Position numbers and translations under genes: made by a program. 64,000 bases of DNA from an uncultured delta proteobacterium (lineage in GTDB: Bacteria; Myxococcota_A; Polyangia; Polyangiales; Polyangiaceae). Below are positions 6,734 through 61,955 of the stretch, in pieces. Location of the stretch: assembly GCA_963850305.1 (NCBI GenBank), contig CAWKKR010000001.1, positions 704,001 through 768,000 on the forward strand, written 5' to 3'. Numbering within the stretch: position 1 is the stretch's first letter; each line of letters opens with the position of its first letter. The notes beneath the pieces were generated by a model. It was not told the origin of the DNA. It saw only the letters and a list, made by a program, of their open reading frames with translations, and made no database searches.

Positions 6734-8531
6734 GTGGATCATGAGGATAGGCACGGGCAGCCAATGAGGCACGCTTCCCGCTCGCCGATGGTCGACGTGG
6801 AGCTCCAGAACTTGCGCGCGGTGCACGAGGCGCTCGAACGGCGTTTTCAGGAACAAAGCCTGGACCTTTCTCGGAAACTCGAGGACCTCGAAAAAGAGAC
6901 TCTCGTCCGGAAGAATACGGAAGTGCTACTGCTCTCGTCGCGAGCGCAGGTCGTCGCGCTGCTGGAAGAGCGCGACGCCGCGCAGAGTACCCGAGACCTG
7001 CTCGACACCGCGCCGGACGCGATGGTCGTCGTCGACGGAGACGGCCGGATCACCTTGGTCAACATCCGAGCAGAGGCCCTGTTCGGCTATTCCCGCTCGG
7101 AGCTCGTTGGGCAGCACCTCGAGCTCCTGATTCCGGACCGCTTTCGTCGGACCCACGGGCGGCACGTCAGCGGCTTCTTCGCGAACCCGACCGTTCGCTC
7201 CATGGGGTCGGGTCTCGAGCTGCATGGCCGCCGCAAGGACGGCACGGAACTTCCGATCGAGGTGAGCCTGAGTCCGCTCGAGACGGGGTCCGGAACGACC
7301 GTTTCCGCGGCGATCCGGGACATCAGCGAGCGCCAACGGACGGAGGCCGCCGCCAGGCTCGCCGCCGAGCGTCTCGCGAGCGCCGTCGAGAGCATCCAGG
7401 ACGCCTTCGCGCTGTTCGACCGCGAGGATCGATTGGTGCTCTGTAACAGCGCATACCGGGGGCTCGGGGAGTCTCTCTGGGAGCCGGTCGTCGGCACGTC
7501 ATACGAGTCTCTGCTGGACGCGATGATGGGAGACATCCTGTTTCCGGACGAGACCGCGCGTGTGCGCTTCCGCGCCGAGCAGCTGGCGCGACGGCACGGC
7601 GACCTAGAGACGACATTCGACATCCGGATGCGCGACGGGCGCACCCTGCGCTTCGCGGACAGAAGGACGGCGGAAGGCGGAATTGTCACGACGATCTCGG
7701 ATATCACCGAGGACGTCCGTCTAGCCGATGAGCTCCGCGAGGCACGCGTCGCCGCCGACACCGCGAACGGTGCGAAGAGTGATTTCCTGTCCGGCATGAG
7801 CCACGAGCTTCGGACACCGCTGAACGCGATCCTCGGGTTCGCCCAGCTCCTGCAACGGGACAAGAAGGACCCCCTCTCGGACCGTCACCGGGATCGGGTC
7901 GCTCAGGTCCTCAACGGGGGCGAGCACCTGATGCGCCTCATCGACGACATCCTGGATCTGTCGCGCATCGAGGCCGGGGGCCTGTCGATCTCCACCGAGC
8001 CCGTGGCCGTGCTCGAGGTTCTCGAGGAGGTGAGGCAAACCCTCGCACCGATCGCCGCGGAGACGGGGATCCAGATCGACGTCGCGTGCTTCCCAGCAGA
8101 GCCCGAGTTGGTCGCGGTGGATCGGACAAGGCTCGCACAGAATCCTCATGAATTTCGGGTCGAACGGCATCAAATACAACCGGCCCCAGGGCAAGATGAT
8201 GTTCACCGTGCTCACACCGACGCCCGGCTTCCAGCGTGTCGCCGTTCGCGACACGGGCCTGGGGATCCCTCTGGACAAGCAGGACAAGCTTTTCCAGCCG
8301 TTTCAGAGAGCCGGACAGGAGACTGGACCGATCGCGGGGACGGGGCTCGGGCTCGTCATCACGCGGCGACTCGCCCGGTTGATGAACGGCGACGTCGGCT
8401 TTCGAAGCACCCCGGGCGAGGGCTCGGAGTTCTGGATCGACATGCCCGTTCACGAATCACGAGTGCCTGTCGTGGCTACTCGTCTCCTTCGTCCCACGTT
8501 CGGTCAGGAATCCGGGACGTACAAGACTTGA
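6734..8531 (+). CDS. PAS-PAS sensor histidine kinase, frameshifted near 8140
   Basis: PAS domains; [16 protein letters not shown]-box; N..KY, DTGLGI and GTGLGL boxes in ORF 8148-8531. Confidence 0.85.
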
Positions 8532-10180
8532 ACGGCCCCACGAGAATCGACGAGAGCACGTCTGGGGGGGCATTCGGCGAATTCGGGGGCAGTCAAGAGC
8601 CGCGTCGTCGTCGATCTGGCTGAATTTCCGTTGTGCGAAGGGCGGGACTCGAACCCGCACAGGAGTAACCCCACTAGCACCTCAACGCTCTTCGCCCGTC
8701 GCGACGTGTCGCTAACTGCTTGTTTTCTCGGCCCTCTGGCTCGGCGGTTCCGACCGTTCGCGCCCGTTTGAGGGGTGGTGGACAACGAGGTGGACAACGC
8801 CGGGCCGCAGTCCGGGCACCCCTCTCGCTCGTTCGGCGCGAGCTCCGGAATGGCATGAAGCACGCACGGGAACGGCTCGTACTCGAGATCCGCGAGCATC
8901 TGCGCCATGCGGGTGTAGCGGGCCAGCATCTGCGACGTTGGCGTGTGTCCCGTACGCTCCGTGATCCATAGGTCCGACTTTCCACCGCGCCTCGCCCACG
9001 TGCAAAACGTCGCCCGGCCGTCGTGAAACCGGATCGCTTGCACGTTCTTCGATTGTTTGAAGAGGATCTCCCGCGTTACGCCCGACGCTTTCAGATCGCG
9101 TCGGAGCACGTCCGCTTCGTCGTGCTCGATCTGCCAGGTTTCCTCGAATTGCCTCGGCCGTCCCGGCCGCCGCTCTTCCGAAACGTGCGGAGCGCCACGC
9201 ACGCTCCGAATTACCGGCTCGTCCCCTTCGGGTCGGCCGCAATGCTCCCACCACGCACGCAGCACCGCGAACACGCACGCCGGCTCGACGCGGAAGAAGA
9301 TCGGTGTGCCGTGGTCTTCGTCTTCCGTCGCATCGAGCCGCTGATAGCCCTTCTGGTGCAGCACCGAGACGGTACCGTGCTTCCAGTCCACGCCGCGCCA
9401 AGTGAAGGCGAGCAGCGTCCCCTTGCGCCATCCGAAGTAGGTCGCCAGCAGGTAGAGCACGCGCCGGCCGAGCGGGATCTCCGTGTTGGCAAGCAGCGCG
9501 AGAACTTCGGGCGGATAGAGGAAGTTATAGAGCTTCGGCGGATCCTTCGAGGCGCGGTAGGCCGCGAGCACAGGGTTCGTGCCCGGCGCTCTCAAGCCAA
9601 GCGGGATCTCTGCAATCGAGAAGATCCGCGAGAGGTACGAGTGCAAGTGGTTGCGCGTCCCGGCAGACGCACCGCCCTGCGACGCCATGATCCTCGCAGT
9701 GTCCTCGTGGATCACGTCCGCCGCCAGTAGATCGCCGAAGAGCGGCCCATGCGGGCCGCGCGTGCGCACCGAGTACGCTCGCTTGTTGAGCACCGCGTTC
9801 GCGTTGTAGCCGTTGGTATTGTACTTCGAGGACGACGGGCGCAGTCCGTTCACGGCGCCGTGCTTCTTGAAGAGGTCTCCGCTGAGCCACGCTTCGCCGA
9901 TCTCGCGAACCGTCGTGAGCTTCTTTTCCGCCACGAGCTTGCCGCGCCTAGTGTGCGGGTTCTTCTCGAGCAAGCGATCGATCATCGCGTCGAGCTTGCC
10001 GGTCTCGCGACCGCGCTTGAGGAACGCGTCGAGCTTCGCTCGCGCCTCTTCATCGCTGAGATTCTTGCCGAGCGGGATGCGCGGCCGCGATCCGTCCGAC
10101 TTCAGGACCTTCGCGTAGGCGCGAACGCCGCGTCGCTCGATCGTGCCCTGCCCGTCCGCCCGCCTGCCCTTCTCGCTCAT
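8504..10180 (-). CDS. int: tyrosine recombinase/integrase of the island
   Basis: Catalytic R (FGWRKG), HxxR (RFHDGR), H (RTGH), Y (LARY); reads through the att repeat. Confidence 0.9.
8633..8685 (-). repeat. att core: 53-bp duplicate of the tRNA-Leu 3' part
   Basis: Identical to 61872-61924 (GTGCGAAGGGCGGGACTCGAACCCGCACAGGAGTAACCCCACTAGCACCTCAA). Confidence 0.95.
8777..8800 (+). promoter_or_regulatory. putative integrase arm-type binding sites (tandem GGTGGACAACG)
   Basis: GGTGGACAACGAGGTGGACAACGC; inverted copy with 23/24 identity at 61782-61805. Confidence 0.7.
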
Positions 10181-10824
10181 GGCTCCCCCATACCGAGCGC
10201 GGCCAACTCGCGATCTATGTCGCCGACGTCAGTAGTCTTCGGCGGCTTGCTGCCGCTTGTAATGTAGGTATCGATCTCGGCGCGCCGCACGAGCCATTGT
10301 TTGCCTTGCTTCCGGGCGCTCGTAAACACACCCTCTCGGCAAAGGCGCAAATGCTTGCGTTTGCCGAGGGGGCTGTGCGTCTGGTCGATCCAGTCGGCAC
10401 CGGCATCTAAGGCCATGGCGACCGTCGCAGCCCGCTTCGCACGCGGCGACGTGTCTGCTCTCGCGCCGTCCATTCCGGCACGCTGCGACGGGGAATCGAT
10501 TTCCGTCGTAATAAATGCCTCGGGCGATTCGAGCCCGAGCAAAATTGTGGTTCGTGCGAGCGGGACTCGCGCGCCGCTCGCCGAAACGACGAAGGCACCG
10601 TCGAGCGCGGCGTCGTCCACGGGCTCACCCTGCTCGCCGACCCAGCGCGCCTTGCATGCGCGCAGGTCGATAGGATCGGTGAATTGCCAGTGTTTTGCAT
10701 ATCGCTTGCCAAGCATCGCTGCGAAATACGCCGGCGACCACTGGAAGACAGGCCCGCTCGCATCCGAGACGATGAGCGCCACGCGCCCTACCCGCGCCGC
10801 TCCGACTGCGATCCACTCGCTCAT
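10177..10824 (-). CDS. excisionase-like protein (C-terminal HTH) with N-terminal extension
   Basis: WIDQTHSPLGKRKHLRLCREG...ARKQGKQWLVRRAEIDTYI resembles Xis/MerR-type HTH; ATGA overlap with int. Confidence 0.6.
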   Translation of the reverse strand: MSEWIAVGAARVGRVALIVSDASGPVFQWSPAYFAAMLGKRYAKHWQFTDPIDLRACKARWVGEQGEPVDDAALDGAFVVSASGARVPLARTTILLGLESPEAFITTEIDSPSQRAGMDGARADTSPRAKRAATVAMALDAGADWIDQTHSPLGKRKHLRLCREGVFTSARKQGKQWLVRRAEIDTYITSGSKPPKTTDVGDIDRELAALGMGEP

Positions 10825-10832
10825 TACCAAGG

Positions 10833-10899
10833 ACGGTAGGTCCGTCGACCGCTTCGTGTCAATACACGACTTGACACCGTCTGGGGCGCCGCATAGTAG
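10833..10899. promoter_or_regulatory. back-to-back sigma70-like promoters / operator palindrome
   Basis: GTGTCAA-N8-TTGACAC at 10856-10877 gives TTGACA on both strands; minus strand TTGACA-18 nt-TACCGT ends 8 nt before the ATG at 10824. Confidence 0.5.
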
Positions 10900-10907
10900 G
10901 AAACGGC

Positions 10908-11129
10908 ATGCAGCAGCAGCGACGCCGTCGCTACACCCGAAACATCAACATCCGGCTACGCCCCGGCGAAAAAGACAAGATCGACGCCGCGGCGAAGGCT
11001 CTCGGTATTCCCACCTCGTGGTGGATGCGCCGCGTCTTGATGACGGCTGCGGCGGAAGTCGATCAGCGAGAGCAGGAGCAAGAAGACGTAACGCAGCCGC
11101 GTGCGAAGGCTGCGGGTGCTGCAAGGTAA
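10908..11129 (+). CDS. ribbon-helix-helix DNA-binding protein
   Basis: INIRLRPGEKDKIDAAAKALGIPTSWWMR: beta-strand-helix-helix pattern; divergent from the xis-like gene. Confidence 0.65.
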   Translation: MQQQRRRRYTRNINIRLRPGEKDKIDAAAKALGIPTSWWMRRVLMTAAAEVDQREQEQEDVTQPRAKAAGAAR

Positions 11130-11299
11130 AGAGGATAGGAGAGCGACCCGACAGACGCGATCGAGCTAAGCGTTTGCGCTGCGCCATGACGACAAATGTC
11201 AGGGCTCCGCCAGGGCCGGCGCATCATCCGACAGGTAGTTCCATGTGCGTCCATGGACCAGCGGTGCCCGGCTCCTGTGGGGGCTACTTCTCGCGTCCG

Positions 11300-11560
11300 C
11301 CGCAGGATGATCATCATCTCGTGAAAGGTGACTCCTCGTCGGACGAAGATCTCCGCTACCTTCGCCACGCTCGTGGAGCCGGGGGTGACTTGAGCAACCG
11401 CGTTGCGCCGAGGGCGCCTCCTCGACGGCGGGCGCCGGGCAGTCCGTAGAGCGGGCATGAAAGAGTAGATGCGGTCCAGGTAACGCCGCCTGGGCCACTG
11501 CCCGGACTCCCATCGCCGCACGAAGTCTTCCGGCACTTCGAGGGTGGAGGCCACGTCCTT
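11300..11560 (-). pseudogene. XRE-like HTH regulator fragment
   Basis: KDVASTLEVPEDFVRRWESGQWP resembles HTH_3. Confidence 0.4.
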
Positions 11561-11749
11561 CGAGGTCGACGGCACCCGCTTCGCCTATGTGTTCTACGAG
11601 AGCGGTCTGTCGATCAACGTGATGTACGGCCTCGACGGCGCGAAGAAGCGCGCCGTCGGGTTCAAGCTCTCCGTCGGCATGGACATGCCCGCCGAGCTTG
11701 CCACGCGCTTCAAGTTCGCCACGCAGAAGTCGAAGCTGGCCGGCACCAT

Positions 11750-12388
11750 CGCCGAACTCGACAAGCACAAGAACGCGGGGACGACGAAGGGGCTGAGGGA
11801 GAGAGCCCGCTCCAGAGTCAAATGGCTCGGCGACGTGCAGGACGGCAAGGTCACTTTGCGGTTCGCCGTGGAGTTCGGGGATCGAGTCCCCGATGACGTC
11901 TTCCTCGACCACGGACTCGACAAGGATCACCCAGATGACCGTCACATCGCCGGGATGCTCGCCCACGGCGATGGTTCAGCGGTTCGACAGAATCATCACC
12001 GCCGACATCGGCATGAAGACTCGGGTCCGAGGCAGGAAGCTTACTTGCGAAAGCCCCGATGACTCCAATCGACTCCCCGACGAGGTAATCCCGAAGTCGC
12101 CCAGCTAAAGAAGGAGAAGGCCGAACTCCTTCGGCAGGTAAACCGACGGCCGGACCTGAAGCTGACGTTCGAGGACGGGGCGAAGGTTCTCCACCACCCA
12201 ATCAAGCTCCCGGTGGAGGCAACCGAGAGGTACCTCCAGAAGGAGCTACTGGAGTACGAGCGAAAGAAGATTCATCCGATCGAGGCCCTCGAAGTCATCA
12301 ACGTGACCACGGGGAAGCCCCTCCGGGTCGAGGGGAACGCCAAGGACGCAGCGACGTACCTCGACGACTACAAGAAGTACCTTGCAGA
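11750..12388 (+). pseudogene. PIN-domain protein fragment, truncated by the IS66 end
   Basis: ELDKHK...LRERAR...DDRHIA...TADIGMKTR PIN-like acidic motifs; frameshifted; reading ends at the GTAA of the IS66 end. Confidence 0.5.
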
Positions 12389-12490
12389 GTAACCCGTGCA
12401 CGAACGACGTAGGGCGCGGCGCTTGCGGAAAGCGCGGCGAGAATGCGTCGGGGGATGACGCGGAGGAAGCGAGCGTGGTTCGTTCTCGGG

Positions 12491-13012
12491 ATGAGACTTC
12501 CGCTCGAAGGGACGCTGCTCGAGAAGCTGCGCAAGATCGAGGCGCTGCATGCCGGGACGAAGATCGACGGCGAGCGAGAGGCGGCGCGTCGGGCAGCAGA
12601 GCGGATTCGTGCGCGTCTGGCGGAGCTTCGGGGTCGAGAGCGAGACGAGGTGTTCCGGTATTCGCTGCCGGATCCGTGGAAGCGGAAGCTGTTCGTGGCG
12701 CTGTGCCGCCGGTACGGCCTGAAGCCGTATCGCGAGCCCGGGCGGCGATACAGCACGGTGCTGTTGCGGGCGCCGAAGACGTTTCACGAGCGCACGCTGT
12801 GGCCGGAGTTTCTCGCGCTCTCGGAGGAGCTCGACGCACACCTGCAGGAGCTGACGGACCGAGTGATCCGCGAAGCGATCGACGAGGACGTGAGCGAGGC
12901 CTCGGACGCGGAGCCACCGAAGGCGCTGACGGAGCGGCAAAGGACGGCGGATCAGCCGGCGAGTGCGGTCGGGGCGGAGAACACGGGCAGCGACGAGCAT
13001 TCGCCGACGTAG
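12491..13012 (+). CDS. hypothetical passenger protein inside IS66 (DUF2786-like N-terminus)
   Basis: LLEKLRKIEALHAG...GEREAARRAAERI; convergent with tnpC; 3' end also present in the second IS66 remnant. Confidence 0.6.
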   Translation: MRLPLEGTLLEKLRKIEALHAGTKIDGEREAARRAAERIRARLAELRGRERDEVFRYSLPDPWKRKLFVALCRRYGLKPYREPGRRYSTVLLRAPKTFHERTLWPEFLALSEELDAHLQELTDRVIREAIDEDVSEASDAEPPKALTERQRTADQPASAVGAENTGSDEHSPT

Positions 13013-14553
13013 AGCTCGGGATGAGCGGCAAGCATGCGATCGGGCAAGAGCTCGCGGAGCTTGCTGTTCGGCCAGCCCTGCACGATGAGCTTGCGTCACG
13101 AGATGGAGGTAGGCGCGCGGGTTGACGTCGTGCGCGATGCAGGTGCGCGACGATGCTGAGGATCGCTGCCGTGCGCTCGCCGCCGTCGTCGAGCCAGGTG
13201 AAGAGCCAGTTTTTTCTTCCGAGGACGAGCCTGCGCAACTCACGCTCTCGGCGATTGTTGGTGAGCTCGATGTTGCCGTCCTCGAGGAACAGCATGAGGC
13301 GCTTCCATTGCCGGTGCAGGTAGCCGAGAGCGCGTACCGAGAGGCGTCTTCGGTGGGATGAACCCACGGTGCTCGTCGAGCCAGGCTCGCAGCTTGTCGA
13401 TGATGGGCATGCTGTGCTCGCGTGCGCCGAGCGAGTCGCTGGTCGGCGGTGTCGCCGGCGAGTGTCGAAGCCGCTCGACCTCGAACAGAGGGGCGATGAG
13501 GCGGAGCGCTTCGAGCGCGAGCTTGTCGCCGCCGCGCGCCGCCTCGACGAAGCGTCGTCGGGCGTGGCTCATGCAGCCCGGGCGCTTGCCGCCGGCGCGC
13601 TCGATGCAGTTGGTGACGCTCGTGCCGTCGCACTGAACGGTGCGGCGACAGGTCGCCGAGGAAATCGCGCACGCTCTGGGCGTCTCCGTGCGCCGAGTAG
13701 AAGAAGCTGACCCATCGCGCGTTGGTCCAGCACCACATGGCTCCGAAGCGGATCCCCTCGGCGACGCTCGGATCGAGCACGGGAATGCCGGTCGCGTCCG
13801 TGCCGAGGTAGCCCGGGGCGCGAGTCTGCTCCGCGATGAGGGCCGCCACGGGCATCGAGCAGATCGATGTGAGCGTCGACGCTGCGTCCGAGCGTTTGCG
13901 GCGCGATCTCGACGCCGTCGCGGCTCGAAGCGCGTGCACTGTCGCTCGATGGGCTGGTGCTCGATGTACTTGTCGCAGGTCGCCTCGACGATGAGGGTAT
14001 CGCCGAGCTTTCCGCGCTCGACGATCGCGGGTGGCGGCAGGGCGGAGACGATCGTGTCGTCGGTCGGGACACGCGACGGTTTCGTCGAGGCGGTGCTCGA
14101 TGAAGATCCGTGCCGGGAGAACGTTGATGGTCTCGCACACCGAGTGCGCGATCGTCTTCATTTCCTTGCCGCACGACGGACAGATCCGCAGCGATGGCCG
14201 GGACGGAGATTCTGCACTTCGACGCGCGGGATGTGGGCGGGGAACGCGCCTCGGCCCCCACCGCCGTGGCGTCGCTTCTTTTCTCGATTGCGTGCTCCGC
14301 GCCGCCGGCAGCGGCTGGCTTTGCACCGGGCGCGACCAGCCCCATCAAAGGCAGCACGAGCTGGCGCTCGAGGCGCTCGAGGGTCTCCGAGCGCGGGCGC
14401 TTGCGGGTAAGATGCGCGACGCGCTTGGTCAGCTCCGAGATTGATGTCGCGCATGCGCGCGATGAGCGACGATGACGGCGACGACGAGCTCGACGAACTT
14501 CATCGCAGCCACCATCTTCTCGAGCCACGCACGAAGGTGCTCGACGTCGGGTG
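12952..14553 (-). CDS. tnpC: IS66 transposase TnpC, multiply frameshifted, start disrupted
   Basis: CPSCGKEM Zn finger, DATGIPVL, HARRRF, NNRRERELRRLVLGRKNWLF, DVNPRAYL. Confidence 0.85.
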
Positions 14554-14675
14554 TGGAGACGATCTTCGAAAAGCGCGGCGTTTCGATCGCGGGAACGGGG
14601 ATCGGGTGGTCGTGATGGAAGACGACGGCCCGAGGTCGTCGTGAGCGACCCCGGGCCGACGGTGTAGGGTCGTGC

Positions 14676-15536
14676 TCAGGCGGTCTGTTGCGAGGACTCG
14701 ACGGTGCGATCGGAGCGGCGGGACTTGCCGGTGATGTGGACGAGGAGGCCGCGGTGGACGAGGCGATCGGCGATGGCGGAGGCGGCGGCAGCGTTGTGGA
14801 AGAGCTTGCCCCAATCCTTGAAGGGCAGGTTGGTGGTGACGATGGTGGCGGCGCGCTGGTAGCGGCGGTTGAAGACCTGGTAGAGGAGGTCGGCGCCGCG
14901 AGCGTCGAAGGTAAGGTAGCCGAGCTCGTCGACGAGGAGGAGATCGTAGGCGGCCCAGGCGGCGAGCCGCCGGCTGCAGCGTGTTCCGCGCCTGGGCGGC
15001 GACGAGGTCGTTGACGAGGTCGGCGGCGGTGATGAAGCGGACGCGGTAGCCACGGAGGCAGGCGAGCTGTCCGATGCGCGTTGGCGAGGTGGGTCTTGCC
15101 GACGCCGGAGGGGCCGACGAAGACGACGTTGGCCTTCTCGCGGACGAAGTCGAGGGTGGCGGCGCGCATGACGAGATCGCGATCGATGCGGTCGGGGTAG
15201 TCGAAGTCGTAAGCTGTCGAGGGTGGCGAGCGGAAAGATCCGGAGCGCTTGAGGGCGGCGCGGGCGCGGTACTCGAGCTGGACGCGGAGCTCCTCGCGCA
15301 TCAGGTGGTCGAGGAGCGAGATGGGGCGACTCGTTGCGCGCGATGGTCTTCTCGAGCGACGGCGTCGAGCTCGCGGCGGCGTGATCGAGGCCGAGAGCGC
15401 GCAGGACGTCGTGGAGCGAGAACGTCGCCGAGTGTCTCAGGCGTCGGCCGGATCGGCTCCGTCGGCGAGTCCTCCGTCGTCGGTGGTACCGGAAGCGGGC
15501 GGATTTCGAATTCTTCGGGCTCTTGGAAGAGGGCAT
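14676..15536 (-). CDS. istB: IS21 helper ATPase IstB, frameshifted
   Basis: [11 protein letters not shown]alker [10 protein letters not shown] Walker [10 protein letters not shown]...ADRLVH; start approximate. Confidence 0.88.
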
Positions 15537-17003
15537 CGTAGGTCTCCAGATATGTGGGTCGACGTCGAGGCGTCGGCGGAAGCGTTGCCGGTGACGATGG
15601 GCTCCGGGGGCTCGCCGAGGCCGCGAGCGAAGCGGCTCTGGTCGACAGGGCGCGGACGTAGCGAGCGCCGAAGGTGCGGGCGGCGAGGGCACGCGCCATG
15701 CGCGGCGCCGACTCGGGCTCGCCGTAGAGGACGACGAGGCGGTCGAGCTTGTCGGATTTCGTGTTCGAGAGGTGGATGCGGCGGCGCGCGACTTCCTGGA
15801 GGTAGAGCCGGGCCTCGGTCGAGAGGCTCGCGAGGCGGTCCGTCCGTTTCGGGCCACGAGCGCCCGGCCGCTTGCTTCACGAGAGCGTCGATGTGCGCGG
15901 GATCCTCGATGGCGCGGCGGCGATCCCAGCAGCGGACATGCTCGGCGATGACAGCGTCGTCGGCGACGACGCGCACGCGAGATGTCGTCGGCTCGCACGA
16001 AGACGCTCCGTCCGACGAAGCGTGTGCGGGACGGAGTAGGCTGTTGGTGTCGAGGCGAACGCGGGCTTCTTGCGAGACGATGACGGGGACGACGAGGTCG
16101 GTGTCGGGCATGCGCTCGGGCAGCTGGCGGCAGGCGCGGCGCGCTCGACGCGGAGGCGATCGGCGGGGCGCTCGCGAGTGGTGGCGTGGAGGCGCTGATT
16201 GGCGACCTCGTCGCGCCAGCTGCGCGCCTGCGTGCGAAGGTCGTCGAGGGACGAGAAGGAGCGGCCGTAGAAGAAGGAGTGGCGGATGTACTTGATGATG
16301 GCTTCGACGCGGCCCTTGGCCTCCGGGTAGCGGACGGGGGCGGCGATGGGCTCGAAGAGGTAGTGCCCGGCGAAGCGCGAGGAAGCGTGGGATTGAACTG
16401 CACCGTGGAGCCGATGTGATGCAGGACGACGCTCTTGAGATTGTCGTAGAGGACCTTGCGCGGAACGCCGCCGAAGAACTCGAAGGCGCGCGCGGTGCAT
16501 GCGGCAGGAAGGTCTCCATCCGCTGGTCGAGGGAGAAGTCGAGGAAGAGGGCGCGCGACCACGAAAGCACCATCACGAAGACGCTGAGCGGGCGCTGCGT
16601 CGTGCCGATGCGCATGTGGCCGAACGAGCCCCAGTCGACCTGCGCTTGCTCGCCGGGCTCGACCTCGACGCGCAGGTAGGCCTTTCGCTTTCGAGGCCCG
16701 CGCAGCTGGGCGATGTACCGGCGGAGCACGGCGATGCCGTGCTGGAAGCCGCGCTCGCGAAGCTCGCCGAGGAGGCGCATGGCGGTGAGCTCGGGTAGTT
16801 CGTCGAGCCGCTCGACGAGGTACGGCTTGAACGGATCGACGACGCTCGCTTGCCGGAATCCTGCGCCGACTCGGCGACGTCGAAGACGCGCGGCGAACGA
16901 CGGAGTGGTGGACGCCGAAGCGGCGCGCGACGGTGCTCGATCGCGCCAGTGCTCGCCGAGCACGAGGCGGCGCATCTCGGCGCGGGTGCCCGCGTCGAAT
17001 CAT
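15437..17003 (-). CDS. istA: IS21 transposase IstA, frameshifted
   Basis: [39 protein letters not shown]. Confidence 0.88.
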
Positions 17004-17389
17004 CGCTGCCCCGTCGCCGTGAACGTGACCAGCCGCCTTCCCGATCCGAAATCGCCCAGCGGGTCGAGGAAGCGCCGCCGGCGAACGAGCTCGCGCGCCT
17101 CGGGGCGCGTCGCCCAGATCACCGAGACCTCGAAGCTACGTAGATCACCGACGAGGAGGGCCCAACGCTCGGGGTGCTGGCGGACGTCCGAGGCGTCCGC
17201 ATCGAGCACAGCGTGCAAGGGCAGCGCGTACCAAGTGGAGAGCGCCTCCAGGAGCGCCGGCACCGCCCTCTCCGACGCCGGCGGGCACGGCAAGATCGCC
17301 TTGAGCGTCGTGCCGTCTCGCGGCGCGGTGAGCATGATCCGAACCTCCGAACCTACCGGCTCGAGCGACATCCACAGCGGTGACCGCAT
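17000..17389 (-). CDS. hypothetical protein inside the IS21 element, coupled to istA
   Basis: Clean ORF (LKAILP...ALLEALSTW...LHAVLDAD) with ATGA overlap into istA. Confidence 0.6.
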
Positions 17390-17711
17390 AGACGAAGACC
17401 TCCACGCGGACTCGCGGCACGGGAGCGACCGCGGTCTGCACACCAGCAATTACCGGCGGCGACGGATCCCCGGAATGGTGTTGCGTCACGCGGTGCCGAG
17501 ATCGAAGGCGAGCGCGGTACGCACGCTGTCGGTCACGGTGATCCAGACGGCCCTCATCGCTGGCCTGGTGCGCTCGCCCCGCGACGCGAACCGCGGCTCG
17601 CCGCGCCTCGCTCGAACAGCGAGGTGAGCAATACCGGAAGCGACGATCGCAGGAACGGCAAAGCAAAAATTCTCCCTGACAGCGCGGGCAGCGCTTCGCG
17701 CGAAGCTCCAC
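17145..17711 (-). CDS. Cys-rich putative Zn-binding protein inside the IS21 element; 3' extent uncertain
   Basis: CPRC...CRSCDRRFRYCSPRC followed by Arg-rich GRLDHRDRQRAYRAR. Confidence 0.55.
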   Translation of the reverse strand: MELRAKRCPRCQGEFLLCRSCDRRFRYCSPRCSSEARRAAVRVAGRAHQASDEGRLDHRDRQRAYRARLRSRHRVTQHHSGDPSPPVIAGVQTAVAPVPRVRVEVFVYAVTAVDVARAGRFGGSDHAHRAARRHDAQGDLAVPAGVGEGGAGAPGGALHLVRAALARCARCGRLGRPPAPRALGPPRR

Positions 17712-22600: not shown

Positions 22601-22641
22601 AAGGCTAAGAAAGATGCCGCGAAGCAGGCGGGGGGTGCGGC

Positions 22642-48407: not shown

Positions 48408-48414
48408 GCGGGTG

Positions 48415-50912: not shown

Positions 50913-50939
50913 TGGAAGATTTCCTCTGAGGTTGGGCGG

Positions 50940-52160: not shown

Positions 52161-53151
52161 GTGTCTTCCCCGTCCTCGTCGGCGTCGAGCATTGCTTGCC
52201 CGACGTACGCAAGCAGTCGGTAAGCGGAGCTCGGGATCGAGCCGACGCTCGTGTTGTGCGCCTGGATCTTCTGACGCAGCGAGACCCCGATCTCGCGCGT
52301 CATCCGGAGGAACGCGAGGGCCTCCTCGGCGTGCGGGTGCCCTGGCCAGAGCTCGAAGATGTACGTGCTCCCGCCCGTGTGATCGTCGCGAGACGCCCGG
52401 CGCGAGCCCCGGCGGAGCTTCGTCGTGATCGCGGTCACGACGGCCTGGTAGTGGTCGAACACGGCCGCTTCCCACCCGGAGGGGCTCTCGAGAGGGATCA
52501 GGTATTCCCGACTCGTGTAGGTGCCGTCGGCGCCCCGTGCGGCGCGCCCGTCTCGCACGAGAACGGCCAGGGCCGCTTCGAGATCCTCGGCCGGCGCCGG
52601 GACGTGCTGCGCGAGCTCGCTCGATGCGAGGGGGCCCCAGTGATGGACCGCAACCCAGACCAGATCGGCGAGGCGCTCGACGCTCGACGTTCCGTCGGCG
52701 GCGATCAGATATCTGCCGGTTCCGAGGCGCGGAGCACGATGCGGTCGCCCGAGCCCGTGGCAAACACGAGCCCGGTCTCGATGAGGTCGCGCAGCACCGA
52801 CCGCACCACGACGTCGTCGTCACGGGAGAACCGCACGAGCACGTCGATCTTGCGCACCGGGCCCACGCTCTTCACGTGGCCCAGCACGGCTTCCCACAGG
52901 GACTGACCCCGGATCGTGCTGCTCTCCGAGAGCCGGCGCACGGTCTTGTGATAGTTGCGGAGCGAGAGCCCGAACATGTCCGCGATGACCTTGTTGCCGA
53001 GGCCCTGCTCCTTCAGCTCGTTCACCAGATCCTGGAAGATCTGGTTCGCCGTGTGAGCGAGCGTTGCCCGCGCCCCGCTCGCCGTCGCGATCTCGGCGAT
53101 GAGCACCGTCGTCTGGCGAACGATGGCGTCGATGAGCAGGTTGACGTTCAT
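52157..53151 (-). CDS. hypothetical protein, possible HTH regulator, frameshifted
   Basis: GLGNKVIADMFGLSLRNY HTH-like segment; ORFs 52705-53151 and 52157-52558; ATGA overlap with the lipoprotein gene. Confidence 0.6.
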
Positions 53152-53385
53152 GGAGGGCTCGTCATGGGTGGGATAGCGAGAGGCCGATCCGACCGACGTC
53201 CCCCTTGTACCCGCGCATCCCGCGGGGAGAGCAGTGCCCGATCGGGCACCACCCCGATTGGGGGCGCCGCGCGGGTCCCGCGGGATGAAATTCCCGCATG
53301 ATCTTCGGGCGCCCGAACTTCCGGCACCGAACCCCTCGGGCTCACCGCTTTTCGGGAGATCGCTGAGAGGCCGCACAAGGAGAAA

Positions 53386-53760
53386 AGGAAAAATTGGCTC
53401 TTTACCTGGCTCGACGACGGCGGCGAGCGCACGGCAGCAATCCTCAGCATCATCGCGACTTGCATCGCCCACGACGTCAACCCCCGCGCCTACCTCCATC
53501 TTGTGACGAAGCTCATCGTTCGGGCCGCCAGGGGCTGGCCGAACAGCAAACGTCTGCGAGCTCCGGCCCGAGCGAATCCTCGCCGAGCATCCCCGAGCTC
53601 TATGTCGGCGACCGCTCGTCGTTGCCCGCGTTCTCGGATCCGCCGTCGCTTCCCGGCCGATCCGTTGCCCCCTCCGTCAGCGCCTTAGGTGGCTCCGCGT
53701 CCGAAGCCTCGCTCACGTCTTCATCGGAATCGCTTCGCGGATCACTCGGTCCGTCAGCTC
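53386..53760 (+). mobile_element. second IS66 remnant (tnpC 3' end plus passenger 3' end)
   Basis: Diverged inverted copy of about 12850-13220 (RKNWLFTWLDDGGERTAAILSI). Confidence 0.75.
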
Positions 53761-53999
53761 ATGGCGACTGACTCCATCCCGCACAGCTCGTCAGAAAACC
53801 GCTCACGCTCGTCGCCTGAAGAAACGCTGGGGCCCGCAGCAAATCATCGATCACGCCGTCGACGTCGAAGAGAAGGACCGCGCCCGCCGTGGACTGGAGC
53901 GAGACGCTGTGCCCCGCAGCCGGCACGAGCGGTTCAAGCCGGCCGAGGACTTCCGGATAGCGGAACGCGGGTGCACGCCAGAAGCCCCACCCGTATCCC

Positions 54000-56847
54000 A
54001 GAGCAGGCCAGGAACGGATTCCGCGCGGAGGCCTGGTGAGCTGAGTCGAGAACGAGAGTTCCCGTGATCGAAGAACGAGACGCTTGCACACCGTGCCTGC
54101 AGATCGGCGCGCGGCCGGTCCGGGTTGCGCCATAGCCGAGGTCCGGTTGCGGATCGCTTCCCGAAGCCTCGCTGGGTGAAGAACAGCATCCGTGCTCCCT
54201 CTGGCGAACGCCCTCCGGATGTCCGATCGGTGCCCTCGACGATGGGAACCGGCAGGCGTGGCCGCATTCGCCCGGGAGCGACGGGAAAGTTACGGCGGGT
54301 ATCCCGAGGTGTTCCACTTCATGGCCCGGGGCGCCTGGACGGCGCTCGTCGGTCATCCGCGTGTCTTCGTCGACGACGAGGAGCAGCCGAATCGAGGTGG
54401 CTCGCGGAACGGTGCAGGTCGTCGCGCGCTCGAAAGGGGACGCGTTCGTCGTTGCGCTCGAGCCCGCCGACGTTTCCGACGAAATCACGATCCGCCGCGA
54501 CGGAATCCGGATCGTGGTATTCGATCCCACCGAGGCGGTGCGCGGGCTCGCGCAGATCATCGGCACGGGTCTCACGCTTCCGGAGAGTGGCCGAGCCCGG
54601 GCGCTTGAGGCCCTCGGCGGCATCGCGCACCTGGTGCCCGTACAGAGCTCGGAGCAGAGCAAAGCGCGACGGGGTTCGTCGGATTCGACGCCCTGGGCGC
54701 GGCTCGTGCCGCGGGGCTCAGCGATATCGATCACGGTGACGGTGCGTCCTCTCGGAGGTGGCGGCTCGCACGTCGTGCCCGGGCTCGGCGCAACCACGCT
54801 GCTCGGGCGAGTGAACGGCGAACCCGTCCAGCCCGAGCGTGATCTGAAGGAGGAGCGACGGCTCGTGCGGTCCGTGATCGGAAGCGGTGGGGTTGGCCGA
54901 AGGCGAGGCGCTGGGCAACCCCGTCACGCTTGAGGATCCGGAAGCATGCCTCGAAGCGATCTCCGCGCTTCGTGCGCTCGGCCCGTCTGTTCACGTCGAG
55001 TGGCCTCAGGGTATGCCCCTCAGAATTCGTGGGCGCATCGGGAGGAAAGCACTCCGGGGGCGGCTCACCCAGGGCGTCGACTTCTTCCTGGCGACCGCAA
55101 CGTTCGCCGTCGATGACGACCTGTCTGCCGATCTCGAAGCCCTCCTCGCTCTGGTCGCTGAGCGACCAGGGAAATTCGTGCGTCTGGAGACTGGGGGGTA
55201 CGTGGAGCTTGAGCACGAGCTGCGAGAGTTGCTCGAATCGCTCTCTGCCGTTCGTGCAGAGGGGCGGGCACAGACCCGAGGCGCGGTGATTCCGAAGAGC
55301 GCGATCGGTCTGCTCGACCGGCTCACCGAGGCCGACTCCGGGCTCGCGCTCGACGCGGGAACGGCTCGCTTTCGAGAGCGACTCCTCCAGGTGACCGAGA
55401 AGCGGTTCCGAGTTCCTCGCGGGCTTTCGGCGGAGCTCCGCCCGTACCAGCGCGAAGGGTTCGAGTGGCTGTGCCGCCTCGCCGAACTCGAACTCGGCGC
55501 GTGCCTGGCCGACGACATGGGCCTCGGCAAGACGGTGCAGGCGCTCGCGCTGCTGCTCGCGCGCGCGAAGGAGGGGCCTGCGATGGTGATTGCGCCGACC
55601 AGCGTGTGCCGCAACTGGCAGGACGAGACGTGGCGGTTCGCGCCGTCCCTGGCGGTGCACTGGCTCGCGGACGCGACGGACCGGCCGGCGCGCATCGCGG
55701 CGATGAAGAGCGGCGAGGTGCTGCTCGTCTCGTACGGCCTGCTGGCCGCGTCGGGCGAGGCGATTGGCGCGCAGCGCTTCGCCACGGCCGTCTTCGACGA
55801 GGCCCAGCCCTCAAGAACCCCGACACGCGCCGCGCCGCCGCGGCCCGGCTCGTGCGCGCCGACACCGTCGTCGGCCTCACCGGCACCCCGCTCGAGAACC
55901 ACCTCGGCGAGCTTCACGCGCTCTTCGACGTCTCGCCCCCGGCCTGCTCGGCAGCCGCGAGAAGTTCGCCCGCGCCTTCAGCGGCCCCATCGCCGGCGGC
56001 GACCGGCGCGCGACCACGCAGCTGCGCGCGCTCGTGCGTCCGTTCCTCCTGCGGCGAACCAAGGCCCAGGTGCTCGACGAGCTGCCCGACAAGACCGAGA
56101 TGACACGCGTGGTCGCCACCGAACGACGAGGAGCGGGCCTTCTACGAGGCGCTGCGCCGTCGCGCGGTCGAGCGCGTCGAGCAGGCGGCGGCGACCCGGG
56201 GCCCGCAGGCGCGCATCCAGGTGCTCGCCGAGATCACCAAGCTGCGCCGCGCCGCCATCATCCCGCGGCTGAGTCGCGGGCGACGACGCTCCGGCCGGCG
56301 CCAAGCTCGACGCGCTCGCCGAGCTCGTGGCGGAGCTTCGTGACGAGGGGCACCGCGCGCTCGTCTTCAGCCAGTTCCTCGAGATCCTCGACGGCGCCGG
56401 TGAGCGCCTCGCGGCAGACGGAGCGCGGTGCGTGCGCCTCGACGGGTCGATGAACGCGGCCCAGCGCCGGCCGCGGTCGACGCGTTCCAGGCCGGCCAGG
56501 CCGACGTGTTCCTCCTCAGCCTGCGCGCCGGCGGCCTCGGGATGAACCTGACGGCGGCCGACCTCATCCAGTCCCGTGGTGGAACCCCGCCGTCGAGGAC
56601 CAGGCGACCGACCGCGCGCACCGCATCGGCCAAACGCGGCCCGTCACCGTCGTGCGCCTCGTGACGAGGGCACCATCGAGGAGCGCGTGCTGCGACTGCA
56701 CGCGAGAAGCGCGCGCTCTACGCCGACGCGCTGCTCGACGACACGGCCCGCAGCGCGACGCTCTCCGTCGAAGAACTGCGCACGCTGTTCGACGGCGGAG
56801 TCTTTGAACCAGACGTGTCTCCCCGATCCGTCGGACGGGCTCGGTAG
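54000..56847 (+). pseudogene. SNF2-family helicase, 5'-truncated and frameshifted
   Basis: [66 protein letters not shown]. Confidence 0.85.
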
Positions 56848-56986
56848 CCGGGGAGAACGCAGCCGTCCAACGCCAAGGGGGGGCTGACGGGAAATCTGCA
56901 TGTCTCGCCGAGGGCCCTGCCGGCGGAGACGCAGCCGAAGCGTGAAAACGCCCCCATGGCCTGCGTCTGCCGGTCGCTCTAGACTA

Positions 56987-58663
56987 GATCGCGGCGAAAA
57001 ATGCCGCCGGTGAAGCCGGATCCTAGCGTGGGCCGCGCGCGCGATCGAGGCTCGCGCGCGGCGAGGGGCGGAAGTCGACGACTAGGACACGGAAGGGCTG
57101 AATTTCTGGTCGACTGCGCACACCTTCGCGCTGCGCGCGAGTCGCCAGGGACGCGGAAGCGATGGGCGACAGCTACGTCGGGGCGGCGATCAGGTGGCGC
57201 GCGAGGATCAGCAGATTGCAGGCGAGCACCGAGCCTCCGACGTACGCGCGGAACGAAGCGAAGCCGCTCCAGGTGCAGCGGTCGAGGCCGAAGGCGCGCT
57301 TGAGAAAGGATATTCCTGCTTCGATGCCGGCTCGGAAGTGTCGAAGCTTTCGAAAGACCGACGTCGACTTGACCATCTCGGTGATGCGCATGCCGCAGGG
57401 TTTGCTGAAGCCGACGTCCCTGACGCCAAGCGCCTTGATCTCGGCCAGGTTCCTGCGCGACGCGAAGCCGCCGTCGAAGCTCACCTGACGCGGGGGTTTT
57501 CCGAACAGCGCGCAGTGGCTCTCCACCATCTTCGTCGCCAGCGTCACGTCGGCGGGGTTTCCTTTTTCGACGACGACAGTCGTCACCAGTCCCGATGCTC
57601 CCGTCGTGAGGCAGACCTTGTGCCCGTAGACCGCTCCTCGGTTGTCCTTGACGATGATGTCGGTGTGCGGCTCGAAGATCGACACGATCTTGTCCGAGGC
57701 AGGAACTGATTCCCCGCCGAGCACACGACGTTTCGTCTGGTTGATCACGCGCGAAGCGAGATCGCCATAGTGGCGCAGCTCCGCGGCGATGGCGGTCGCG
57801 CGCAGCATCTGCATCATGTCGGTGGCCTTCACGCCATCGAGACGCTCAGCGATCCGCTTCGCCTGCTCCGCGGTTTCCACGGTCACCTTCAAAAGGTCTC
57901 GATAGAGCGGGATTCTTCGCTCCATTCTTTTCGCGGTGAGAATGGCCACCATTCGGCGCTTTGCGCGGCGCCGTCGGTCGTTGAACGACATTCCGAACTC
58001 CTCGCGTGCCGTCTCCATCCCCCGAGCCAGTACGCGCACCGAGTCCCAGAGCAGGGTCGAATCGGTCGGGTCGTGGACATCCGACTCGATGGCAGTGCAG
58101 TCGGTCCGGATCCTGTCGCCGGTCTCAACGCCGGCCGCGACAGCGCTCCGAATAACCATGTCGTTGATTGCCGCCCACGTCTCCGCTCGCACCCGCTTGA
58201 TACTCTTCTGCAGGGTGGACTTCTTCGGTGGACGGTCGCCGATGCCCATGCGACAGAACCACCGGTAGCAGCTGGAGTCGGCGAGGTGGAACGCGAGTTG
58301 GTCGTAGCTGAAGCCATTCATCTGCTTGACGAGCATGGCGCGCAAGACCTGTTCCGCCGGCATGCCCTTGCGTCCGAGCCGCTTCGTCTTCGGGTGGACG
58401 AGATCGGCATGCACGAACTCGGCCGCCAAAGGCATGCAGTCGAGCAGTCCGCTGATCCGTTTCAATTCCTCGGCGTGGGCATGCTCGATGATGGTTGGAA
58501 CGAGCCGGGCTTGAAGGTGTATTCTCTCGCGCATCGAGGTCCTCGTTTTTTCGGTGGTCTTGGCCGACTCCCGACGAAACACGGACCTCGTCCAAATTAT
58601 TTCCATCCTCGCGCGCCACTTCCCCCTTTGTCTTCGCGCACTTCCGAATTTTTCGCCGCGATC
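56987..58663 (-). mobile_element. ISNCY-family IS, copy 2 (inverted relative to copy 1)
   Basis: Same 16-bp TIR; perfect 7-bp TSD TAGACTA. Confidence 0.92.
57173..58534 (-). CDS. DDE transposase (ISNCY)
   Basis: Matches 21055-22416 apart from two amino-acid differences I noticed (S/T, N/K). Confidence 0.9.
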   Translation of the reverse strand: MRERIHLQARLVPTIIEHAHAEELKRISGLLDCMPLAAEFVHADLVHPKTKRLGRKGMPAEQVLRAMLVKQMNGFSYDQLAFHLADSSCYRWFCRMGIGDRPPKKSTLQKSIKRVRAETWAAINDMVIRSAVAAGVETGDRIRTDCTAIESDVHDPTDSTLLWDSVRVLARGMETAREEFGMSFNDRRRRAKRRMVAILTAKRMERRIPLYRDLLKVTVETAEQAKRIAERLDGVKATDMMQMLRATAIAAELRHYGDLASRVINQTKRRVLGGESVPASDKIVSIFEPHTDIIVKDNRGAVYGHKVCLTTGASGLVTTVVVEKGNPADVTLATKMVESHCALFGKPPRQVSFDGGFASRRNLAEIKALGVRDVGFSKPCGMRITEMVKSTSVFRKLRHFRAGIEAGISFLKRAFGLDRCTWSGFASFRAYVGGSVLACNLLILARHLIAAPT

Positions 58664-58682
58664 TAGACTAAGCTGGCGCTCC

Positions 58683-59021
58683 ATGCAGGCCCTCGAAGCC
58701 ACGCTGCCTCCCTTGAAGGAAGATGCCGACGGCGTGCTTCGCGTCGCGGGCACGCGCGTCTCGTTGGACTCCATCGTGGCCGCATTCGACATGGGCGCGA
58801 CGGCCGAGGAAATCGTCGACCGATACCCGTCGGTCGGTCTCGCGAGCGTCTACGAGGTCATCGGCTATGTATTGCGACACCGAGGCGCCATCGACGCGTA
58901 CCTAGCCGATCGCGAGCGTCGGGCTGCGCAGGTCCGGACCGACATTGAAGCGCGCTTCCCGCCGGGTGGGGTTCGCGCTCGCCTGCTCGCTCGGCAGGGC
59001 GGTCCCGGCGCTGCACAATGA
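58683..59021 (+). CDS. DUF433-family antitoxin
   Basis: RVAGTRVSLDSIV...GATAEEI...YPSV.LA.VY. Confidence 0.85.
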   Translation: MQALEATLPPLKEDADGVLRVAGTRVSLDSIVAAFDMGATAEEIVDRYPSVGLASVYEVIGYVLRHRGAIDAYLADRERRAAQVRTDIEARFPPGGVRARLLARQGGPGAAQ

Positions 59022-59371
59022 TTCGCCTCGCTGCGGACGAGGATCTCGACAACGACATCGTGCGAGCCCTGCGCCGGCGCCTGCCCACCGCGGATGTGCT
59101 GCGAGTTCAGGACGCGGGCCTCAGCGGGCACGGCGATCCGGCCGTCCTCGAGTGGGCGGCTACCTCGGGGCGCGTATTGATCACGCATGACGTCTCGACG
59201 ATGACGAAGCACGCCCTCGACCGCTTGCGCGAGGGACGGAGCATGCTTGGCATCATCGTGATCCCTCAGCGAACGGCAATCGGCGCCATCATCGAGGACC
59301 TTGTGCTTCTCGTGACATGCAGCGTGGAGGAGGACCTGGCGGGGCAGGTCCTGTTTCTTCCGCTGCGATGA
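59018..59371 (+). CDS. DUF5615 PIN-like toxin
   Basis: RLAADEDL...GLSG..DP.VLEWA...GRVLITHD; ATGA overlap. Confidence 0.85.
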   Translation: MIRLAADEDLDNDIVRALRRRLPTADVLRVQDAGLSGHGDPAVLEWAATSGRVLITHDVSTMTKHALDRLREGRSMLGIIVIPQRTAIGAIIEDLVLLVTCSVEEDLAGQVLFLPLR

Positions 59372-59531
59372 GTGGAAGCAATCACGAGGATGCGCTGCTT
59401 ATGCGGTGCTCGGCTGAAGCAGCGGAATGGAGCGATCGTCTCCAATGCTGCGACAGGCCGCGTGGGGAGCTTGACCGGTCCCACTGGCCCTTGAATGGAG
59501 CTACCCTTGGTAGAATGGCCAGTGGAGCGCC

Positions 59532-61065
59532 ATGAGCTGCCGCAGGGAGCTTTCGATGGCGCTATGCGGGTTCGCTGCGGGCTGCGGTGGGCGAAGCGGT
59601 CTCGATGTCCCGGGGGCTGCCGCTTCGGCCAGCAGGGACGTCGCGACGGTTAGCGCCGGCCCCGTCGAAGCCGGCTCGTCGTCGAGCGGCGGCGGAATCC
59701 GGCGGGAGCAGTTCCAGCGGCAGAGGCTCAGCATCAGGCTCGAGCTCCAGTTCCGGCTGGAGTAGCGGGCCCACGAGCGACAGCGGAGACTTCAACGGTG
59801 GGCCCGACCGCGTAGCCACCGGTGATGCTGGTTGCTGCAACGCGAAGACGTGTGCCGACTACCCGGCGGGGACCTGCGGAGCGCAGAGCGACGGTTGCGG
59901 CGGCCTGACCCGGATTTGCGGCACGTGCGTCAGTCCTCAGTCCTGCGGGGGCGGCGGCGAGCTGAGCATCTGCGGAGTCGACCCTACGGAAGCGTTCGTC
60001 TACGTTTGCAATCCGATCACCTGCGCCGCGGTCGGCCCCTGTGGCCCGGCGGCAGACGGATGCGGGGGCGTCCTCATGTGCGGCACCTGTCCGCGGGCCG
60101 CGTACTGCAACGGGGGTGGACCGGACGCTGGACAGACGCGTGTCCCGAGGCTGGTGCTGTTCGGCGGGACCGACACTGGAGCGCCTTACAGCGACGGCGA
60201 CGCTCCCCTTGGCGATACCTGGACCTTCGACGGCGCGAGCTGGACCCGGTTCGACGGGATTGGGCCGACAGCGCGCTACGGCCACGCGATGGCGACGCTC
60301 GGCAACGTCGTCGTGATGTTCGGGGGGCTCGTCCTGACGAGCTACTACGGTGAAGTCGCTCTGGGCAATGACACCTGGACGTTCGACGGTACCCAGTGGC
60401 GGCAGGTCGCTAGCACGGGGCCGTCGCCGCGGTGGGACGCGGCGATGGCGACGCTCGGCAAGCACGTCGTGCTCTTCGGCGGAACCACCTACGGCGGCGA
60501 CGACGCGTATGACGATACGTGGACCTTCGATGGAACGAGCTGGACGCAGGTCACGGGCGCGGGCCCTCCAGGACGCTACAGCGCCGGCCTGACGACGGTG
60601 GGAGGCGAAGTGGTCCTCTTCGGTGGCATCGCCAGTCCCCTCGGCTCCCTCGTCCCCGCGTTCTTCAACGACACGTGGACCTTCGACGGCACGACCTGGA
60701 CCCAGGTGGCGAGCGACTCCGGCTCCTCGCCACACCCCCGGTACGCGCCGGCCATGTCGGCTCTGGGCACCCGTGCCTTACTGTTCGGAGGCACCTACGA
60801 CATGAGCTTCCAGCTCGTATTCGTCGACGACCTCTGGACGTTCGACGGCAGCAGCTGGGGGATGAGCATCTTCGACGCTTCCGCCGGACCGCCAGTACGC
60901 CAGTACCCGTCCGTCGCGACGCTGGGAGGGAGCGTCGTTCTTTTTGGAGGCCAGCACTCCACCTTCCTGAACGACACATGGTCCTACGACGGCTCAAGCT
61001 GGACGCAGGTGAACGTGCCTGGGCCGACGGGGCGCGCGGTCGCGGCGATGGCGGCCTTGCCGTAA
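59532..61065 (+). CDS. lipoprotein with Cys-rich repeats and Kelch-like beta-propeller, frameshifted near 59700
   Basis: AAGC lipobox; CG...DGCGG...CG.C; repeated LFGG...DTWTFDG..W. Confidence 0.82.
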
Positions 61066-61149
61066 CCCTCGGCGGCGCGCGGACCGCTCGCCTTCGCGAG
61101 CGCCTGCGCACCCACGTAGGCCAAGCCACGCGCAATAGTAGAGGATCCG

Positions 61150-61281
61150 TGCCGCTCGCGGTAACCTTGTCGACCCGCTGCACGTACGACGCCTTCTCGC
61201 GCACGAGCTGCTTTCGGATGCGCGTCAGGTCTCGCAACGCTTGCTCGCGTCCGGCGCATCGCGAATGCAAAATCTCCACGG
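61150..61281 (-). pseudogene. internally deleted IS110-family transposase remnant
   Basis: EILHSRCAG joined directly to ALRDLTRIRKQLVRE...QRVDK. Confidence 0.55.
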
Positions 61282-61379
61282 GCTCGCAGCACCAAGTTCA
61301 ACCGACCTCGATACCGACGCTAAATGAAGAGTAACTTGTCTTGCTCGGTTCACGCGTTGAGCGTGCGGTCGGCTCGACG

Positions 61380-61634
61380 CGGTCCCCGCTCGTCGGCGGC
61401 TCGGGCTCGCTCTTCGCGCTGCTCGTCGTCGCCGCTACGGTCGACGGCCCGGGGATGCTCGCGTTCGTCACGGTGCTCGTGCTCGCCGTGACGAACATCG
61501 CGCACGCCTTCGGTGCGCCATGCGACGCTGGCGTGAGTTTCGGGTGCCACATCGAGGGCCTCGTCCTCGGAGCGGTCGTCGTCGTGCTGGCGCGCCTGCT
61601 TGGTGGCGATCTCCGCCGTGCTGTCGCTGTCTAA
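61380..61634 (+). pseudogene. rhomboid-like membrane protease C-terminal fragment
   Basis: VGGSGSLFALL and HIEGLVLG motifs. Confidence 0.4.
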
Positions 61635-61781
61635 GCCTTGACGATTTTCAGCGGCACGACTTCGCCAGGTACCGTCAGCAGACCGCGCGCCGCGCGGAGG
61701 AGCGACTCGACCTCGGCTCCGGCCCCAACTCGCGCGAGCGCGGCGGCCTGCTCCAGCAGCGAGGCGGCGGCTTTCCGCCGC

Positions 61782-61805
61782 GCGTTGTCCACTTCGTTGT
61801 CCACC
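61782..61805 (-). promoter_or_regulatory. putative integrase arm-type binding sites, tRNA-proximal end
   Basis: Reverse complement GGTGGACAACGAAGTGGACAACGC matches 8777-8800. Confidence 0.7.
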
Positions 61806-61872
61806 AGCCCCGTCGGCGCGCTCCCCGCCGGCGCGCCGTGCTCCGTGGATTCTTCTTTTATTTCAAGCGGAG

Positions 61873-61955
61873 TGCGAAGGGCGGGACTCGAACCCGCACA
61901 GGAGTAACCCCACTAGCACCTCAAGCTAGCGCGTCTGCCATTCCGCCACCTTCGC
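61873..61955 (-). tRNA. trnL: tRNA-Leu(GAG)
   Basis: GCGAAGG/CCTTCGC acceptor stem, anticodon loop TTGAGGT, long variable arm, GGTTCGAGTCC T-arm; CCA not encoded. Confidence 0.95.

Follow-up and report, generated by a model that had tools for sequence, protein, structure and literature searches.

The window analyzed in the current work is a stretch of 64,000 nucleotides (nt) from an uncultured delta proteobacterium of the Polyangiaceae (GenBank assembly GCA_963850305.1, contig CAWKKR010000001.1, positions 704,001 to 768,000 of the forward strand), in which a genomic island of about 53 kb is inserted at a transfer RNA (tRNA) gene, tRNA-Leu(GAG). Our subject is the integrase gene (int) of this island, which spans one of the two attachment (att) cores, and a C-terminal integrase module that appears to be encoded at the opposite island end. 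The intact tRNA-Leu(GAG) gene (61872..61955, minus strand), the sole tRNA called by ARAGORN, is located at this far end and contains one att core (61872-61924). The other core (8633..8685, minus strand) lies at the end of int and is an exact copy of the 3’ 53 bp of the tRNA gene, displaced to that end of the island in the same orientation. The two 53-bp cores are still identical, and the presence of both a tRNA/fragment pair and an R-K-H-R-H-Y residue set in the integrase places the element among the tRNA-targeting tyrosine-integrase islands. No congener with a matching 3’ flank of tRNA-Leu(GAG) was found, although the 5’ flank is syntenic with that of congeners.

The integrase open reading frame (ORF; 8504..10180, minus strand) specifies, in the integrated form, a protein of 558 amino acids (aa) that matches PF00589 (E 8e-6, narrowly missing the curated cut-off) and the phrog_1 integrase family (E 7.5e-25). 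Its named relatives are from Polyangiaceae and other Myxococcota, and sequence comparison assigns it to a Polyangiaceae family that is remotely related to the integrase (Int) of Myxococcus phage Mx8; a search with this single Int as query gave no match in viral contigs and did not recover Mx8 from the phage collection. The residues presumed to be catalytic, as in tyrosine recombinases generally (R252, K277, H386, R389, H412 and Y422), are all situated upstream of the core. The conserved domain ends, in 26 aligned homologs, at an IPEL motif (residue 447, at about 8840) and is followed by an unconserved linker to V499, where the ORF enters the core. It then runs for 42 codons beyond the core, as described in the initial annotation, and the joined (attP) form given there, a 518-aa Int ending in SHSA, was also reproduced when the island ends were joined in silico (TGA at 61865-61863).

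The 42-codon tail of the integrated form is not conserved, and it exists because the tRNA of the window has TTA at a core codon where four congeners have TAA, as do two other family members. Considering also that five close homologs end within or just past the first third of the core, and that the stop codon of the tail sits in a dispersed repeat (8466..8590), we regard this long tail as incidental. Since the SHSA ending is not conserved either, the idea that it acts as a degron was abandoned.

What had been missed at the far end is a second open frame (61631..61870, minus strand), in +1 relative to Int, the 79 codons of which specify a linker, a helical hairpin, and VVPL with a lysine-rich basic end. 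The nine bases that directly follow the core toward the island interior (61863..61871, minus strand) make up the two codons and the TGA that end the joined form. The translated module matches the corresponding ends of the two most closely related islands, G410 (E 8e-17), the module of which is its ortholog, and G406 (E 2e-18). In a comparison with 15 sequences it also matches the tail fused to P0023 (E 5e-6), which in turn scores 29 bits on the module profile described below; P0023 is an integrase homolog in which two tandem hairpin modules are fused directly after a short linker. G410 is a 66% identical relative with the same tRNA and the same core frame; in the integrated state its Int frame meets a stop within the core, and the join of its island ends continues in frame into the module. 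Differences between the window and G410 modules fall mostly on third codon positions (14, 13 and 33 at positions one, two and three). Other single-sequence searches with the window module returned no longer relative and no viral relative, and the corresponding genome search gave weak matches only, the best one being without a nearby tRNA piece.

Beside each core lies a pair of short repeats, two GTGGACAAC copies within the int linker (8778..8798) and, as their inverted partners, two GTTGTCCAC copies near the tRNA (61784..61804), which we consider to be arm-type sites. The spacer between core and arm repeats measures 64 nt in the window versus 63 nt in congener G099, an alignment that leaves the position of the extra base ambiguous (40 equal alignments). 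Because the +1 frame carries a TAG inside the core, the single extra base is most simply placed between the core and the TGA, within 61863-61871, and the attP tail ending in SHSA is short because one extra base follows the core. On these comparisons the SHSA stop is best read as a frameshift or assembly error, and the window copy as a true member of the family that is frameshifted as assembled: its long attP-specific C-terminal segment is not joined in frame, whereas that of relatives is. In G099 a close integrase faces the tRNA in antisense, through a homolog of the window’s spacer, which suggests that an inversion between the arm repeats separates the two arrangements.

Read-through into att was next considered at the level of the family, for which 209 loci yielded 206 integrase ends, reduced to 163 clusters at 95% identity and giving 167 rows by class (40 without a nearby tRNA piece and 6 cut or unclassified); the frame was followed from the conserved end to att, and expected openness was derived from dinucleotide shuffles. 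In the class to which the window belongs, with a 3’ tRNA fragment read in sense, 26 of 27 integrases are open to att versus 13.7 expected (the other frames being open in 21 and 7), with one stop in 1,363 int-frame codons. Where a whole tRNA is read in antisense, 57 of 71 are open to the tRNA versus 39.4 expected (46 and 33 in the other two frames). As far as the anticodon loop, 53 of 71 remain open, compared with 19 and 17 for the other frames; one antisense row, L083, is from an unpublished genome (G173). Clustering at 70% identity gave 19/19 versus 9.9 expected (sense) and 27/36 versus 18.5 (antisense), and two small classes (11/14 and 6/9 open) were not significant. Read-through into att thus exceeds chance at the family level, and most homologs do stay open. 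On a quick tree, from which L083 and partial domains were left out, sense and antisense orientations are interspersed, at least six changes being forced by strong branches, and early-stopping integrases fall in a few clades.

Far ends were then located in relatives, and 33 islands were joined near the anticodon loop. The excised tails share a helical hairpin of about 55 aa followed by a VVxL motif and basic residues (alignment A3), from which a module profile was built by training on in-frame tails of at least 60 aa, with four elements left out by name, and applied in leave-one-out fashion at a threshold of at least 10 bits. The module was recovered at this threshold in 28 of the 33 reconstructed islands; it is in the Int frame in 26 of these 28 and fused without a stop in 25 (25/33 islands). 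The excised form runs 78-149 aa beyond the junction in 26 of the 33 relatives, and the integrated tails are of arbitrary length, 7-451 aa where the junction was reached.

A held-out set of 20 same-contig pairs was chosen only by the positions of integrase and module matches, and two duplicates of training elements and two pairs without a shared repeat were set aside. All 16 remaining islands fuse in frame without a stop, including three whose shared repeat does not match a tRNA, and the chance of 16/16 frame matches at one in three is about 2e-8. Among the best 30 module matches, nine of which are training elements, 27 lie 88-212 nt past a tRNA piece, and all 27 are open back to that piece; an ATG between tRNA piece and module is present in only six of them, GTG and TTG starts not being counted. 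Naturally fused Int-plus-module frames were found in DNA at ten loci (20.9-74.7 bits), and six of the top 150 protein matches of the module exceed 200 aa, five of which are such fused frames. The terminal VVxL/basic motif, in a definition made after the data had been seen, ends 13 of 26 excised tails but none of the 28 integrated ones, against 1.6% for random frames, and 11 of 34 early-stopping (non-split) integrases carry a VVxL end directly behind the catalytic domain.

For one family member AlphaFold predicted a confident hairpin (helices 5-26 and 29-48, with a block predicted local distance difference test score of 95-98 over residues 11-40). A fold search with the module returned generic hairpins only (best Z 7.0, none of at least 8), comparison of the module alignment with Pfam and with sequences of the Protein Data Bank identified no shared family, and a homodimer prediction of the module scored 0.04 and was not used as evidence. 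At E 1e-4 the module profile matches 108 of the 201 genomes of the family, and in a search at E 1e-6 it was present in 6 of 18 genomes of the family but in none of 232 other genomes of the phylum; in protein databases it matches 1,408 clusters, mostly short orphans. The same module is also present at the C terminus of more distant tyrosine recombinases (P0075, P0135, P0149 and P0056), being not confined to the IPEL-ending group. Tandem island arrays at one tRNA were observed at L212-L213 (G072:C13:350454-373343), L219-L220, L242 and L245, where adjoining islands may together provide a fused integrase without excision. The genome of the window (G000) carries three more module copies, at C1:11355-11480, C1:189-305 and C2:23049-23189, beside tRNA-Arg/tRNA-Glu pieces, which suggests that they mark other islands of the same integrase family.

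The reading that we favor, with a probability of roughly 78%, is that in this 53-kb island at tRNA-Leu(GAG) int spans the core while a C-terminal module is coded at the opposite end, that the two are joined on excision and the module is removed by integration, which would likely switch Int from an integration-proficient to a weaker form, and that the module of the window is one base out of frame by mutation or assembly error. A number of observations weigh against it. The window module reaches no more than 3.1 bits against the family profile (hhalign P 0.7), its comparison with alignment A3 was not significant, and its membership rests on P0023, G406 and G410; the island ends of G410 are on different contigs, and G406 has several int frameshifts, stops in both cores and a module out of frame. 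Among the 33 reconstructed islands, five have no clear module, two have it in another frame and one has a stop in the core, and 10 of the 33 joined pairs spanned contigs. In the antisense class 14 of 71 integrases stop short of the tRNA, an open +1 frame is likewise frequent among the sense-class integrases (21/27), and the relatives are not independent of one another.

The favored reading leaves two origins for the extra base, either a real inactivating frameshift or an assembly error, in which case the island would be intact and its excision would give an Int-module fusion of about 595 aa; we rate the latter at slightly below an even chance. Int and module are each intact, both cores are still identical and the differences from G410 are concentrated at third positions, all of which speaks for an error. 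So do the near-identical repeats of the assembly, 52 pairs of which show 86 gap openings over 78,874 aligned bases (about 1 per 900), although these gaps may be true divergence. Against an error, the island is full of insertion sequence (IS) elements and gene fragments, like decaying islands, and genuine out-of-frame or stopped copies exist in relatives L081 and L214. The initial annotation had taken the two literal forms of Int as the substance of a tail swap; the exchange on integration stands, but the 558/518-aa SHSA pair is not conserved, and the excised form of relatives bears a domain. That these two forms would represent regulated isoforms is very unlikely: both follow literally from the assembled sequence, but neither tail is conserved, the core itself contains a stop codon in congeners, the long tail terminates within repeated DNA found elsewhere in the genome, and the orthologous module lies just behind the stop, one base out of frame.

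The latter arrangement, a TGA stop with a functional +1 frame, resembles that of prfB, where a stop preceded by a CTT codon is followed by a functional frame at +1, and programmed +1 frameshifting at GCT-TGA could in principle reach the module and supply a low level of fused Int. Relatives, however, fuse without any shift, the codon before the stop is GCT versus the CTT of prfB, and the GCT-TGA site is not conserved in G410, which makes this explanation very improbable. The module might also be a separate small protein, for instance a directionality factor, the fusion being incidental: 144 of the top 150 database matches are of 200 aa or less, and the ESM Atlas clusters module matches as Myxococcota hypothetical proteins. 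We regard this as unlikely in view of the frame match across att in every held-out island, the paucity of ATG codons between att and module (with the limit on start codons given above), and the VVxL end found directly after the catalytic domain of non-split integrases.

The remainder of the island (interior 8686..61871, 53.2 kb) contains IS21 and DDE transposase genes, FecR, MFS and EAL pieces, and genes with Kelch and SNF2 domains. Cysteine-rich (DUF4215, Dicty_CTDC) and Kelch repeat proteins at 36271-38343, 17999-18520 and 60212-61018 are typical myxobacterial surface cargo. Neither capsid, terminase, tail and other phage structural families nor conjugation families were found among the part of the ORFs scanned, namely 45 ORFs with Pfam and 22 proteins with PHROGs; these ORFs give no sign of a prophage, and the earlier description of the island as non-phage holds for them. 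An ORF overlapping the start of int (10177..10830, minus strand) has an HTH_17 domain match (E 1.9e-4, below the cut-off) and is placed like uoi of Mx8; it is likely an excisionase, judging from its domain and position. A DDE insertion sequence is present in two inverted copies (20925-22607 and 56980-58664) that differ at five substituted positions and by a gap of two bases within a stretch of C, and IS-like pieces are common to the island (47435-47851) and the DNA to its left (1004-1921). The dispersed repeat in which the integrated tail stops has five further genome copies; such repeats of about 75-130 bp, at 74-84% identity, occupy at least six places, in the window at 8466-8590, 35351-35444 and 11269-11307 and elsewhere in G000 at C3:107597, C8:4942, C8:23397 and C8:590873. 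In two relatives, the DNA after tRNA-Leu(GAG) maps 113 kb further left in the genome of the window (G000 C1:599400), and for this reason the apparent host flank left of the island probably belongs to a larger variable region. In a congener, tRNA-Leu(GAG) is likewise occupied, by a 16-kb element (L296 and L305, G193:C124:35666-51527) for which it is the 5’ fragment of the tRNA that is displaced, the rarer arrangement.

With respect to function, a circle would presumably form on excision, joining the module to int so that full-length Int could be made; its hairpin and terminal motif would then aid subunit contact or synapsis for integration at attP. Integration would clip off the module, lower Int activity and thereby stabilize the island, and the clipped Int together with the upstream HTH protein would suffice for excision. 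We consider this functional part somewhat more probable than its negation. The Mx8 Int tail is said, in work attributed to Tojo and Komano in 2003, to be dispensable for excision. Further support by analogy comes from the description of a 112-residue tail in Mx8 that is replaced by 13 residues, with lower activity (PMC4701971), and of a site preference of Mx8 Int that is altered by integration (PMC6070905). For the Tn1549 integrase, PMC5871717 describes C-terminal segments that govern oligomerization and activity, and short truncations that raised activity, because of which the direction of the module’s effect is not certain. More broadly, it is about an even proposition that Polyangiaceae hold a large tyrosine-integrase family circularly split by att, in which a hairpin module, now represented by more than 1,000 orphan hypothetical proteins, would be added only in the circle as a directionality switch, and in which inverted arm repeats would let the core flip without breaking the frame, so that, over many tRNA targets, lineages could change from reading the tRNA in sense to reading it in antisense and back.

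Such a design would extend what was an oddity of phage Mx8 to a whole family of non-phage islands, in which the part exchanged is a conserved folded module and not an arbitrary tail. Some 1,400 clusters of small ORFs that now lack annotation would thereby be identified, and the many natural pairs make the role of the attP-specific tail testable. Integrases mined from such genomes in the integrated form would be clipped, which is relevant to integration tools for Sorangium-type hosts.

The parallel with Mx8 drawn in the initial annotation is borne out in several respects. Mx8 IntP/IntX is a remote homolog of the window’s Int family (hhalign P 98.8, E 7e-17, 23% identity), its attP lies inside int past the catalytic residues, just as the window core lies downstream of the catalytic Tyr, the tail of its excised form is about 100 aa long, and an HTH gene overlaps the start of int in both systems. 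The integrase of Mx9 is reported to be similar to Mx8 IntP/IntX. Mx8 differs in being a phage, whereas no phage genes were found among the island ORFs scanned, and it appears to read the T-arm of a tRNA in antisense (a weak match), whereas the island reads its tRNA in sense; the module of the island family is, furthermore, kept across a whole bacterial family, with many tRNA targets and both core orientations. The Mx8 tail itself does not match the hairpin module (5.1 bits on the profile, hhalign P 0.3), a further point against the favored reading. Split archaeal integrases of the SSV1 type likewise have att inside the integrase gene, and their split removes the catalytic part of the integrase, whereas the window family keeps all catalytic residues in the integrated form. 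An att site inside the integrase gene is described for both Mx8 and SSV in PMC4383910, and PMC4701971 describes non-phage streptococcal integrative and conjugative elements in rumA with att inside the integrase gene and a different C terminus after excision; the latter use a serine integrase and a non-tRNA target. In its geometry the module resembles the UVR hairpins of UvrB/UvrC and McsA (2nmv_B with Z 5.8 and a root-mean-square deviation (rmsd) of 0.6 across 38 residues; 8wtb_B with Z 5.9 and an rmsd of 2.0 across 47 residues), with middling Z scores tied with many unrelated hairpins, so that the likeness is one of geometry. A full-text literature search retrieved no description of the split-module integrase family or of the module, the primary Mx8, Mx9 and TIGER papers, which may describe part of it, being outside this search. 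An attP inside int is known from Mx8, and what appears to be new, as far as the full-text search can tell, is the family-wide splitting of a conserved module in non-phage islands.

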